Assembly (NCBI RefSeq): GCF_036507355.1
Contig: NZ_AP027877.1
DNA: 64,000 bases
Direction: 5' to 3' (one strand)
Source of the DNA: Escherichia coli
GTDB taxonomy: Bacteria; Pseudomonadota; Gammaproteobacteria; Enterobacterales; Enterobacteriaceae
Part shown: positions 6,289-63,112 of the stretch, one piece after another
Layout: every line of letters starts with the position of its first letter
Position numbering within the stretch: position 1 is the stretch's first letter
Translations under genes and position numbers: made by a program
Notes under the pieces: generated by a model
The model's database searches: none
What the model was told of the DNA's origin: nothing
What the model saw: only the letters and a program-made list of their open reading frames with translations

Positions 6289-6588
6289 ATGGCGCTTACA
6301 AAAGCTGAAATGTCAGAATATCTGTTTGATAAGCTTGGGCTTAGCAAGCGGGATGCCAAAGAACTGGTTGAACTGTTTTTCGAAGAGATCCGTCGCGCTC
6401 TGGAAAACGGCGAACAGGTGAAACTCTCTGGTTTTGGTAACTTCGATCTGCGTGATAAGAATCAACGCCCGGGACGTAACCCGAAAACGGGCGAGGATAT
6501 TCCCATTACAGCACGGCGCGTGGTGACCTTCAGACCCGGGCAGAAGTTAAAAAGCCGGGTCGAAAACGCTTCGCCCAAAGACGAGTAA
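6289..6588 (+). CDS. ihfA: Integration host factor alpha subunit
   Basis: 99-aa [52 protein letters not shown]... Confidence 0.95.
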
Positions 6589-6602
6589 TCTGATCTAACT
6601 AA

Positions 6603-6628
6603 AAAGGCCGCTCTGCGGCCTTTTTTCT
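6603..6628 (+). terminator. Rho-independent terminator after ihfA
   Basis: Hairpin aggccgc-tct-gcggcct followed by ttttttc. Confidence 0.8.
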
Positions 6629-6688
6629 TTTCACTGTCGAAGAGTCACCGTAAAATCAACGCCATGACACTTCAGCAGAACGGATACC

Positions 6689-29818: not shown

Positions 29819-29924
29819 GTTGGAGTCATTACCCAGCTTGCTGACGGCTTGAAGAGAGTCACAGTATCTTGTGCAACATTATTGGAAAGAGTGAGGGGCG
29901 AGGTAGCGAAGCGGAAAAATGTTA

Positions 29925-30029
29925 AAAAAAAGCCCATCGTGGGAGATGGGCAAAGACTACACACAGCAATTCGTTGTTTCACTCAGGGGATTTCCATGCT
30001 TATAAATCAATATGTTGATTTATAACCGT
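29925..30029 (-). ncRNA. rprA: Small RNA RprA (positive regulator of rpoS translation)
   Basis: Minus strand ACGGTTATAAATCAACATATTGATTTATAAGCATGGAAATCCCC...CCCACGATGGGCTTTTTTTT recognised as RprA, with -10 TACTAT at 30036-30041 and an intrinsic terminator. Confidence 0.85.
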
Positions 30030-35278: not shown

Positions 35279-35467
35279 ATGTCTACTCAACTTGATCCCA
35301 CCCAGCTGGCCATTGAATTTTTACGCCGTGACCAGAGCAATCTTTCACCTGCCCAATATCTCAAACGTCTGAAACAACTAGAACTTGAATTTGCTGACCT
35401 GCTTACTCTCTCTTCTGCTGAATTAAAAGAAGAAATCTACTTTGCCTGGCGTCTGGGTGTGCATTGA
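35279..35467 (+). CDS. ydiH: Small protein of unknown function
   Basis: 62-aa MSTQLDPTQLAIEFLRRDQSNLSPAQYLKRLKQLELEF...; track ORF extends 27 codons upstream. Confidence 0.7.
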   Translation: MSTQLDPTQLAIEFLRRDQSNLSPAQYLKRLKQLELEFADLLTLSSAELKEEIYFAWRLGVH

Positions 35468-35692
35468 TCCTGACTTAATGCCGCAAGTTCGCCAAATCGA
35501 CCTGGATTAACCTCCGTCCAGGTTCGATGACCTTCTTAATACTGCTTATCTACCCGCCTGATATTGTTCAAAAATAATACTAATCGCAGTTTGTGTTAAA
35601 ACGGCGGCTTAGCTTTATGAGATTATTCTTATCGCCCCTTCAAGAGCTAAGCCACTGAGAGTGCCGGAGATAAGCGCCGGATGGGGTAGAAA

Positions 35693-35737
35693 CCCTTAAG
35701 CCTGTGTCGCACAGACTTAAGGGTTTTCTTATTTCTG
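35693..35737 (+). terminator. Intrinsic terminator about 230 bp downstream of ydiH; possible 3' end of a small RNA (RydB locus?)
   Basis: cccttaagcctgtg-tcg-cacagacttaaggg followed by ttttcttatttctg; too far from ydiH to be its own terminator. Confidence 0.35.
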
Positions 35738-35820
35738 AACGCTGCACTTTTTTACCTATCTCTTAAATAGTCAGTTTCAATACAACTTTTTCTTTTTCAT
35801 CACAGCCTTAATTCTCCTTA

Positions 35821-35839
35821 GATAATAACCATTATCTAA
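35821..35839 (+). promoter_or_regulatory. Fur box in the suf operon promoter region
   Basis: GATAATAACCATTATCTAA matches the GATAATGATAATCATTATC-type Fur consensus, about 180 bp upstream of sufA. Confidence 0.65.
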
Positions 35840-36015
35840 CAATGAGATACCTAATTCTTAGCGTGCCTGTTAACCCACACATCAGGGTCTATGCTTATTA
35901 AAAGCAGGCAAAAAGCATGTTTTACGGTAAAGCCCCTGCGTTTGCTGGGTTGAACTGATAATCATTATCACTAACATGCTGTTATACGCTGAAAGCGATG
36001 AAGTGAGGTAAATCG

Positions 36016-36384
36016 ATGGACATGCATTCAGGAACCTTTAATCCACAGGATTTCGTCTGGCAGGGCTTAACGCTGACACCCGCAGCGGCGATACACATCC
36101 GCGAGCTGGTGGCAAAACAGCCAGGTATGGTCGGCGTGCGCTTAGGTGTGAAGCAAACGGGCTGCGCGGGCTTTGGCTATGTGCTCGACAGTGTTAGCGA
36201 GCCGGACAAAGACGATCTGCTGTTTGAACACGACGGCGCGAAGCTGTTTGTCCCGCTGCAAGCGATGCCGTTTATTGATGGCACGGAAGTCGATTTCGTT
36301 CGTGAAGGACTTAATCAGATATTCAAATTTCACAACCCTAAAGCCCAGAATGAATGTGGCTGTGGCGAAAGCTTTGGGGTATAG
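36016..36384 (+). CDS. sufA: Fe-S cluster A-type carrier
   Basis: 122 aa with C-terminal CGCGESF motif. Confidence 0.93.
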
Positions 36385-45470: not shown

Positions 45471-45710
45471 CCATTCAGGATGAGGCGGTAAGCTTCATCC
45501 TGATATTCTTGCTTCAGTTGCGGTCCAGTTAATCATTCTAAATAACAACTGCTGAAATTATACGAATTTCGGTATGTATTTTAATTTATAGCGATAATGT
45601 TATTTTTATTTTCTGCAATGAACGTCACAAATAATTGTCGCTTAAGTTAAATTTATTTCAAATGATAATAAATATCAGTTCACTTATAATTTCTTGCTTT
45701 GTAATTTTAA

Positions 45711-53397: not shown

Positions 53398-53703
53398 TCA
53401 GGCGAGTTTTGCCTGATTGATTTGACTCAGTGGCTCATTGACATCGAAAACTTTGGCGACAACTTCCTCAACGCCGAGATTTTTCAGTCGGGCAGTGTGT
53501 TTTTCCAGATAGGCAAGGGCGCTTTTTTCATCAGTGAAAAGGTAGATCCCACCGGCTTCGTGGTTCTTTTCACTTTCGGTCCATACCTTCCACAGAAAAC
53601 CAGGTTCCTGATTAATCGACTCAGCAAGCGGTTTAAGCTGCTCAGCCATTGCGTCGCCAAATGGGCCATTGAAAGAAAAATGAAGTTGTAACAAAGTTGC
53701 CAT
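53398..53703 (-). CDS. ydhR: Small dimeric alpha+beta barrel protein (putative monooxygenase)
   Basis: 101-aa [41 protein letters not shown]... Confidence 0.85.
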
Positions 53704-53810
53704 AGCGATTCTCCTTCTGATAACGCATACGAAGACAGTGTAAATCTTTTAACGTATTGGATACAGAGAAGAAGCAGAGGGAAAAAGGAGAAGACCAGAT
53801 TAAGAAAATC

Positions 53811-53887
53811 TGGTGCGTCCGAGTGGACTCGAACCACCGACCCCCACCATGTCAAGGTGGTGCTCTAACCAACTGAGCTACGGACGC
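53811..53887 (-). tRNA. valW: tRNA-Val (anticodon GAC)
   Basis: Reverse complement GCGTCCGTAGCTCAGTTGGTTAGAGCACCACCTTGACATGGTGGGGGTCGGTGGTTCGAGTCCACTCGGACGCACCA; valV/valW assignment is by position only. Confidence 0.9.
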
Positions 53888-53891
53888 AGGA

Positions 53892-53968
53892 TGGTGCGTT
53901 CAATTGGACTCGAACCAACGACCCCCACCATGTCAAGGTGGTGCTCTAACCAACTGAGCTATGAACGC
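53892..53968 (-). tRNA. valV: tRNA-Val (anticodon GAC)
   Basis: Reverse complement GCGTTCATAGCTCAGTTGGTTAGAGCACCACCTTGACATGGTGGGGGTCGTTGGTTCGAGTCCAATTGAACGCACCA; 4-bp spacer to the second copy. Confidence 0.9.
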
Positions 53969-62559: not shown

Positions 62560-62602
62560 TCCATTTCACTCCAGACCCTAACTTCAGCTCCTGCAAAATC
62601 GC

Positions 62603-62618
62603 AAGGTAAACGTTTGCC
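62603..62618 (-). promoter_or_regulatory. PurR box (autoregulatory operator) in the purR 5' region
   Basis: Minus strand GGCAAACGTTTACCTT against PurR consensus ANGCAAACGTTTNCNT. Confidence 0.65.
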
Positions 62619-62857
62619 TTTACACACCTTACGCACAACAAAAGTGTTGCGGTACGCCGGAAAAACGACACGGAGCGTCAGGAAGGGGTCAATGGCCAGT
62701 ACGCAAATAGTGTAAGCGTGGAATTTTGGCCGATCTTGACGAAAAGGGGAAGTGGTAAAAACACTTATCATTATAAATGACGGGAGATTTTTTCATCACA
62801 GTGTGTAAAAATGCGTAATATCACTTTTTGTGTGGTAATAAAAAAGGAGAAAACTTG

Positions 62858-62947
62858 ATGAGCACCGACCTTAAATTTTCACTGGTAACAACGATTATCG
62901 TCCTCGGTTTGATCGTAGCCGTGGGTTTGACTGCCGCGCTGCACTGA
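62858..62947 (+). CDS. ynhF: Small membrane protein (29 aa)
   Basis: MSTDLKFSLVTTIIVLGLIVAVGLTAALH* preceded by RBS aaggaga and followed by hairpin cgagggag-cgcgtt-ctccctcg. Confidence 0.75.
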   Translation: MSTDLKFSLVTTIIVLGLIVAVGLTAALH

Positions 62948-63112
62948 TTTCCTCTCGAGGGAGCGCGTTCTCCCTCGCATCTCCTTCCTGTTTGTTAGCA
63001 AAATGGCAAAAGTGTTTTCTCTTTTTGTTATTTTCATTTTTTTGTGATTGCTGTCATGCTTTCGCCACTTTAATGAATATCGCGTAATGACGCGAAGAGG
63101 TGGAGATAAGGC

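Follow-up and report, generated by a model that had tools for sequence, protein, structure and literature searches.

The small RNA RydB and its terminator-like hairpin in the ydiH–sufA gap of Escherichia coli

In the 64,000-nt stretch of Escherichia coli DNA analysed here (contig NZ_AP027877.1, hereafter the window), the 548-bp gap between ydiH and sufA (35468–36015) holds, with a probability that we put at about 0.9, a free-standing gene for the small RNA RydB, a known RNA with catalogue entries of its own. Its dominant species, ~61 nt long, is very abundant and does not carry the terminator-like hairpin that follows it in the DNA, because the dominant RNA 3′ end mapped by Term-seq lies at position 35694, upstream of the body of that hairpin. 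A terminated form of ~100 nt would at most be a precursor. Since rydB is a catalogued gene, what remains of interest at the locus is the function of RydB, the abundance of the RNA, the probable processing of its 3′ end and the invariance of its hairpin module.

Identity and dominant 3′ end of RydB

The RNA is identified by a match to the Rfam family RydB (RF00118) at 35634–35694 on the plus strand, which covers positions 1–61 of the 61-position model with a score of 81.6 bits against a gathering threshold of 50 (E = 9e-18). A permissive Rfam scan of the gap (E ≤ 1) returned no family besides RydB. In pairwise alignment, the segment 35609–35773 is identical to E. coli K-12, on the same strand and between the same neighbours ydiH and sufA, and there is no sequence difference between the window copy and K-12 rydB (RF00118, b4430; synonyms tpe7 and IS082). 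An earlier reading of the window, made from the sequence only, had linked RydB to this gap and had proposed an independent short plus-strand transcript there. The link to RydB is right, the RNA being placed at 35634–35694 (+) by Rfam with K-12 b4430 as its homologue, and the independent transcript is borne out by the 81.6-bit Rfam match, the K-12 annotation and a conserved −10 element. RydB was reportedly first described, by Wassarman and colleagues in 2001, as a band of ~60 nt.

The published limits of the gene are not uniform. The Rfam model begins at the first base of the closing helix P1 and ends at the Term-seq 3′ end, delimiting the abundant 61-nt form GCCCCUUCAAGAGCUAAGCCACUGAGAGUGCCGGAGAUAAGCGCCGGAUGGGGUAGAAACC at 35634–35694 (+). 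The K-12 RefSeq annotation of rydB (b4430, 1764713–1764780(−), 68 nt), when mapped by alignment, occupies 35622–35689 (+), and is thus 12 nt longer at the 5′ side and 5 nt shorter at the 3′ side than the limits given by Rfam and Term-seq. The Salmonella gene is given as 105 nt (1450415–1450519), long enough to include the hairpin (Sittka et al. 2008, PMC2515195). The RefSeq, Rfam and Salmonella limits differ by 5–45 nt, which matters for the design of probes, deletions and overexpression constructs. A mini-open reading frame, AUG GGG UAG (35681–35689), was considered and dropped, as its start codon is missing in other subtypes.

An intrinsic-terminator-like hairpin, recognised by its fold energy and covariation, overlaps the 3′ end of the 61-nt form on the plus strand (stem 35689–35727, T-rich tail 35724–35736) and starts 226 nt past the ydiH stop codon. 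Specifically, it has the form AAACCCUUAAG.CUGUG-UCG-CACAG.CUUAAGGGUUU at 35689/35690–35726/35727, followed by UUUUCUUAUUUCU to 35736, so that a stable, G+C-containing hairpin stands directly before a U-rich tract, as in an intrinsic terminator. Folded alone (35686–35740), the hairpin has an energy of −22.0 kcal/mol, compared with −9.0 ± 2.8 kcal/mol for dinucleotide shuffles (z = −4.6), and none of the 200 shuffles is as good. RNAalifold keeps 16 pairs across 24 distinct enterobacterial versions (from Escherichia, Salmonella, Citrobacter, Silvania and relatives), five of them with compensatory changes (such as CCCUCAAG/CUUGAGGG); genera differ in the upper stem, and a T run follows the hairpin in all 24 versions. 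Other genera, Klebsiella and Raoultella among them, have a terminator of unrelated sequence that is 40–90 nt further downstream. A simple terminator scanner returned 0 sites, but this null is uninformative, since the scanner needs a perfect stem and the hairpin has one C/A mismatch. The strong plus-strand hairpin that the sequence-only reading had placed, as an intrinsic terminator, at 35693–35737, ~230 bp past ydiH, is therefore real, and the hairpin is the presumed stop of the rydB primary transcript.

That reading had also expected a small RNA ending near 35737, which does not hold for the stable RNA. Published K-12 Term-seq data record a single rydB 3′ end, at 1764708(−), with the flanking sequence ...GGGGTAGAAACC|CTTAAGCCTG (Adams et al. 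2021, PMC7815308, Supplementary file 1). Coordinate mapping and the printed sequence agree in placing this end at window position 35694. The Rfam model ends at that base, which stands 7 nt beyond P1 and already 5 nt inside the 5′ arm of the hairpin. The end is covered by averages of 2,174,030 and 4,136,120 reads in two growth conditions (PMC7815308). In the same tables, the corresponding values, in millions of reads, are 7.5 and 8.6 for ffs, 2.2 and 0.93 for ssrA, 1.2 and 3.9 for csrB, 0.39 and 0.46 for ssrS, 24 and 12 for rnpB, and 0.18 and 0.08 for the lpp terminator (PMC7815308).

The hairpin is probably taken off after termination. Exonucleases that act from the 3′ end (RNase II, PNPase) stall near a stable helix, and the 7-nt tail that remains past P1 fits such trimming; a cut by RNase III within the stem, or by RNase E at CC|CUU, is equally possible. 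The E. coli 3′ end directly follows the tail sequence AACC, which could be a processing signal. Of 120 copies, 43 have AACC in the 14 nt that follow P1, compared with 17 of 355 control windows, a weak signal that comes mostly from one related group.

A different account would make RydB an Hfq-type base-pairing small RNA of ~100 nt that ends with its terminator and U-tail, the 61-nt species being a breakdown product. The hairpin and T run lie directly 3′ of the structured domain, and the Salmonella gene, annotated as 105 nt, yielded a 2.5-fold enrichment in Hfq co-immunoprecipitation (PMC2515195). Furthermore, the curated Term-seq list retains only the strongest peak per 100 bp, so that a weaker end 37 nt downstream would be masked and go unlisted. 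However, the 35694 end is among the strongest 3′ ends of K-12, like those of tmRNA and CsrB, coincides with the end of the Rfam model, and lies upstream of both the hairpin body and the U-tract, whereas a mature small RNA of the Hfq-dependent kind keeps a 3′ terminator hairpin with a U-tail, the site for the proximal face of Hfq. RydB is moreover listed among Hfq-independent small RNAs (PMC3933206), and the Salmonella enrichment amounts to 4 versus 10 reads (PMC2515195). In Klebsiella and Raoultella, finally, the terminator is distant and unrelated, the conserved unit being the 5′ domain alone. We consider this account unlikely.

Putative promoter and independence from flanking genes

The putative rydB promoter is an extended −10 element, TGAGATTAT, at 35618–35626 (+), in which TG (35618–35619) is separated by one base from the hexamer GATTAT (35621–35626); there is no good −35 element. 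The −10 element ends 7 nt before P1, and the start predicted from it, 35633/35634, would be the first base of P1 and of the Rfam model. The sequence-only reading had advised looking for a promoter upstream of the hairpin, and a conserved −10 element is indeed found ~65–70 bp upstream of it. In particular, the motif TGAGAnnAT is kept 5′ of type-A (E. coli-type) copies in Escherichia, Salmonella, Citrobacter, Klebsiella and Pantoea, while each other RydB subtype has a −10-like hexamer of its own. With all subtypes taken together, a −10-like hexamer ends 3–12 nt before P1, mostly at 5–8 nt, in 101 of 120 distinct copies.

The genes that flank RydB change from genus to genus. They are ydiH and sufA in Escherichia, a LysR-type gene and sufA in Citrobacter, and others in Klebsiella, Pantoea and Erwinia; one Rouxiella copy adjoins osmC, and in Salmonella the next gene 3′ of rydB is on the opposite strand (PMC2515195). 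Because the −10 element is conserved whatever the upstream gene is in other genera, rydB is free-standing, and the variability of its neighbours argues both against an origin from the ydiH 3′ untranslated region and against a cis-acting leader.

It is improbable that there is no separate gene and that the hairpin is the ydiH terminator, with RydB being cut from the ydiH 3′ untranslated region. RydB and ydiH do lie on the same strand, and the hairpin at 35496–35528, downstream of ydiH, has no T run, so ydiH transcripts may reach 35736. Such an origin is nevertheless at odds with the conserved extended −10 element at a fixed distance from P1, with the presence of −10-like hexamers proper to the other subtypes, and with the retention of the RNA and its upstream element in genera in which ydiH is not upstream (Citrobacter, Klebsiella, Pantoea, Erwinia). 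Most improbable is a riboswitch-like leader or attenuator that decides whether transcription continues into sufABCDSE. Several helices closed by P1, with invariant junction bases, are indeed followed at once by an intrinsic terminator upstream of a same-strand operon, but the downstream gene varies (opposite-strand in Salmonella, unrelated in Klebsiella, Pantoea and Rouxiella), the hairpin is separated from sufA by ~280 bp that contain the control sites of suf and a perfect Fur box, the RNA accumulates as a discrete species at a very high level, and a candidate pairing in which the hairpin 3′ arm (CUUAAGGG) would switch to the 5′ strand of P1 (CCCUUCAAG) does not co-vary, since P1 reads CUCC/UUCC in Silvania-type sequences and the hairpin does not follow.

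Fold, relatives and proposed mode of action

P1 is a proven helix. It pairs GCCCC (35634–35638) with GGGGU (35683–35687) on the plus strand, ahead of a single-stranded tail of 7 nt, AGAAACC (35688–35694). When 36 diverse copies are aligned by plain MAFFT, RNAalifold recovers the Rfam fold, with compensatory changes in all five P1 pairs. In this alignment, 97.4% of the P1 cells are paired, compared with 90.2% after shuffling (0 of 500 shuffles as good) and 38–51% with a slid partner, and double changes number 44 where 12.8 are expected. Two model-based alignments, of 95 and of 65 distinct sequences, are concordant. Over all these alignments, 97–98% of the P1 cells are paired, compared with 34–54% with slid partners, and 0 of 500 shuffles are as good. 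A test in which P1 partners were swapped discriminates weakly (own 15.2, swapped 12.5), most P1 helices being C4/G4, and pair counts were used instead. Among relatives, P1 spans the range from GCCCC/GGGGC to CGUUCA/UGAACG. The window copy thus has the fold of the RydB family, with a closing helix supported by covariation.

Two elements inside P1 are conserved in sequence. The junction element AGAGCUAA lies at 35643–35650 (+), as identified in alignments of family members; its core AGAGCUA, which was free to vary in the genome scan and fixed by the search pattern in the metagenome scan, is unchanged in all genome-scan copies save one (GGAGCUA, L072). The invariant 22-mer GAGUGCCGGAGAUAAGCGCCGG lies at 35659–35680 (+) and holds the P3 hairpin, CCGG-A-G / AUAAG / C-G-CCGG, at 35664–35680. 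When the 5 bases before GAUAAGC and the whole 3′ strand of P3 were left free in the metagenome scan, P3 was canonical in 65 of 65 instances on 59 contigs. P3 departs from this canon only in two weak copies, L014:6793–6853 (24 bits) and one on L178 (E = 0.47), both probably decaying. Because P3 and the junction are invariant while P1 covaries, the two elements appear to be constrained at the level of sequence, which suggests specific recognition and not merely a structural role.

A pseudoknot between CUUAUC (35628–35633) and the P3 loop GAUAAG was rejected, as the hexamer is not kept in Pantoea and Erwinia though the loop is; the pseudoknot would also need an upstream 5′ end. P3 may bear a likeness to the P4 region of RNase P RNA, and nothing here relies on it.

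An exact scan with the P3 22-mer GAGTGCCGGAGATAAGCGCCGG, with one genome per species, gave at least 120 loci, in Enterobacterales, and the relatives overall number 180+ loci. The genera among the matches listed include Escherichia, Salmonella, Citrobacter, Klebsiella, Raoultella, Enterobacter, Kosakonia, Pantoea, Erwinia, Rouxiella, Hafnia, Sodalis and Mangrovibacter, together with others. Subtypes differ by their junction and their variable hairpin, and some genomes have 2–3 copies of the family. Of 12 examples that are not of the E. coli type, 11 score above the Rfam rydB threshold (51–72 bits), so these relatives are already within the known RydB family; among the 180+ loci, nearly all are scored as rydB by Rfam.

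Several individual copies were recorded in these scans. Tandem RydB-family pairs occur on metagenome contigs, one with its members ~176 nt apart at L129:8477–8719 and others on L135, L142, L146, L160 and L168; each member has its own −10-like element, P1 is CGUUCA/UGAACG in the first and GCCCC/GGGGC in the second, and P3 is the same. In Pantoea sp. AS-PWVM4, the 24-bit copy at L014:6793–6853 lies ~1 kb upstream of a canonical copy (L014:7812–7873); its junction is degraded (AAUAACUAAG) and its P3 retains the AUAAG loop with U-A for G-C, as in a probable decaying duplicate. Three copies of Sodalis/Enterobacterales type stand on contigs labelled Martelella alba, an alphaproteobacterium (L057:3983–4049, L058:3514–3584, L058:6743–6809), which suggests that the assembly is contaminated or mislabelled. 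One of the Martelella-labelled copies has GAGCG for GAGUG, changing G.U to G-C in a small inner helix.

The pathway that we propose is as follows. Sigma-70 RNA polymerase would start at ~35633/35634 from the extended −10 element, and the first 54 nt would fold into a compact domain closed by P1 that presents the invariant junction and P3. Transcription would end at the hairpin and T run (35689–35736). The hairpin would then be removed, the likely agents being an endonuclease that cuts at or within its base and 3′ exonucleases that trim the new end until they stall 7 nt past P1, to give the very abundant 61-nt RNA ending at 35694. As the mature RNA is without the terminator U-tail, it would most likely act in trans as a structured RNA, through the P3 and junction module, and not as a classical Hfq-bound small RNA that pairs by a seed.

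What the module recognises is a more tentative matter. One possible reading, to which we give rather less than even odds, is that RydB is an abundant, 3′-processed structured RNA whose P3 and junction recognise a protein, a ligand or a conserved RNA partner; the conservation pattern is compatible with it, because P3 is identical in all full-scoring copies, in contrast to P1 and the variable P2 hairpin, which vary freely. The literature consulted gives no mechanism for RydB, and RydB has no known targets (PMC11230228). The only reported effect, cited in two preprints, is lower rpoS expression with rydB in multicopy (bioRxiv 10.1101/310631; 10.64898/2025.12.22.696124). As to regulation, RydB was SoxR-dependent in an array study with paraquat (PMC2064960) and is repressed by ppGpp in Salmonella (PMC3963941). 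RydB is an orphan, with a Term-seq signal at the level of tmRNA and CsrB, order-wide conservation and an invariant 22-nt hairpin module, and with no known target or partner.

In its behaviour, RydB resembles the RNAs encoded by ffs (4.5S), ssrA (tmRNA), ssrS (6S) and rnpB (RNase P RNA), which likewise have very high Term-seq 3′-end counts, a mature 3′ end that lies off the T-tract and near a terminal helix, and, in the literature, independence from Hfq. The likeness is one of behaviour only, as RydB shares no sequence or structural similarity with them; unlike these housekeeping RNAs, RydB has no known protein partner or essential role and is restricted to Enterobacterales in our scans. With classical Hfq-dependent small RNAs such as RprA, RydB shares an intergenic position, a promoter of its own, a downstream intrinsic terminator and a reported effect on rpoS. 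However, the Rfam model of RprA includes the terminator hairpin and U-tail, whereas the dominant form of RydB is without its terminator; moreover, RydB associates with Hfq weakly at best, and its most conserved part is a hairpin and not a single-stranded seed.

Several points weigh against the interpretation of RydB developed here. The K-12 RefSeq 5′ end (35622) lies 12 nt upstream of the proposed start and falls within the proposed −10 hexamer, the start site itself being a prediction. The 105-nt Salmonella RydB implies that the full-length form may be stable in some species or conditions. The curated K-12 Term-seq list shows no end at the T-tract, although, with a single peak kept per 100 bp, it speaks neither for nor against a precursor end. 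In addition, the 61-nt RNA folds with −14.7 kcal/mol, no better than its shuffles (z = 0), so that support for the fold comes from P1 covariation only; covariation is uninformative for P2 (three pairs, GCU/AGU) and P3, both of which are invariant. Finally, the structured recognition module is a proposed mode of action.

The suf side of the gap and other features of the window

The sequence-only reading had assigned a Fur box to 35821–35839 (GATAATAACCATTATCTAA), an assignment that fails. The site matches the 19-bp Fur consensus GATAATGATAATCATTATC at 11 of 19 positions (13 of 19 when shifted by 3 nt) and does not match the 7-1-7 inverted repeat TGATAATNATTATCA even with up to 2 mismatches; it has GATAAT and ATTATC half-sites spaced by 4 nt, is not a canonical Fur box and lies in the far-upstream suf control region. 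The only strong Fur box of the gap is the canonical sufA site TGATAATCATTATCA at 35956–35970, 46 bp upstream of the sufA ATG, which matches the 7-1-7 motif perfectly (15/15) and, at 15–16/19, also fits the 19-bp consensus better than any other site of the gap. With ≤2 mismatches to the 7-1-7 motif, 0.24 chance matches are expected in the whole window.

Far upstream of the suf promoter, Lee and colleagues reportedly described in 2004 sites for OxyR and IHF. We take these sites to fall between the hairpin and ~35860, with the IHF site presumably at about 35821–35839. According to a review, the OxyR site of suf is far upstream and needs IHF (PMC8593673). A promoter-like match, ATCACA-16-GATAAT, is present at 35799–35826, and this promoter was assigned to sufA in a SELEX-chip study (PMC3946193). 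Directly after the T-tract, within 35745–35781, lies a CTAT-N7-ATAG palindrome, ACCTATCTCTTAAATAGTCA, which is kept in Citrobacter and in Escherichia relatives. With 13 of 20 positions in agreement with the OxyR tetranucleotide pattern, this palindrome may be the site at which OxyR acts upstream of suf.

In our proposal, the rydB hairpin would also shield the adjacent suf control region, namely the upstream sites and the Fur box at 35956–35970, from transcription coming from rydB and ydiH. Because the rydB terminator directly borders the distal part of the suf control region, the rydB deletions used in studies of persisters and stress could alter suf regulation in cis; such deletions may also disturb the ACCTATCTCTTAAATAGTCA palindrome.

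The plus-strand gene order in the window is ydiJ-menI-ydiH, the gap, and sufA-sufB, which is the E. coli arrangement. The extent of the gap as given by the sequence-only reading agrees with the list of open reading frames and the K-12 annotation: it runs from the base after the ydiH stop codon to the base before the sufA ATG (36016). Its left border is set by the stop codon of ydiH (35279–35467, +; 62 aa; K-12 b1685 by alignment), and its right border by sufA (36016–36384, +; open reading frame list and K-12 annotation). The K-12 gap is 547 bp long, and in pairwise alignment the difference is explained by a 1-base indel near 35553. Of 5426 complete E. coli genomes, 5421 have a match to the gap, the best at 99.5% identity.

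Directly 3′ of ydiH, at 35496–35528, there is a hairpin without a T run, AUCGACCUGGA...UCCAGGUUCGAU; the region that holds it (35468–35560) folds with −17.8 kcal/mol (z = −2.2). No canonical terminator for ydiH itself occurs before the rydB hairpin. A minus-strand promoter-like match, TTAACA-17-TATTTT, at 35571–35599 is directed towards ydiH and is at chance level in the scan. Two minus-strand open reading frames, at 35640–35747 (35 aa) and 35882–35977 (31 aa), were dropped, as neither is supported.

Elsewhere in the window, the small RNA RprA is matched at 29922–30029 (−) by its full Rfam model, terminator included (RF00034, 118.5 bits). Further matches above the Rfam thresholds are STnc550 at 62560–62950 (+; 396 bits), STnc540 at 6530–6688 (+; 67 bits) and a phenylalanine leader at 2565–2689 (+; 75 bits). 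A Fur-box-like sequence, TGATAATAAATATCA, at 45663–45677 (+) has 1 mismatch to the 7-1-7 motif. Two minus-strand tRNA genes lie at 53814–53887 and 53895–53968 (region 53687–53968), and one of them is overlapped by a plus-strand match to the HPnc0260 antisense RNA, which looks like the complement of the tRNA and not like a separate gene.

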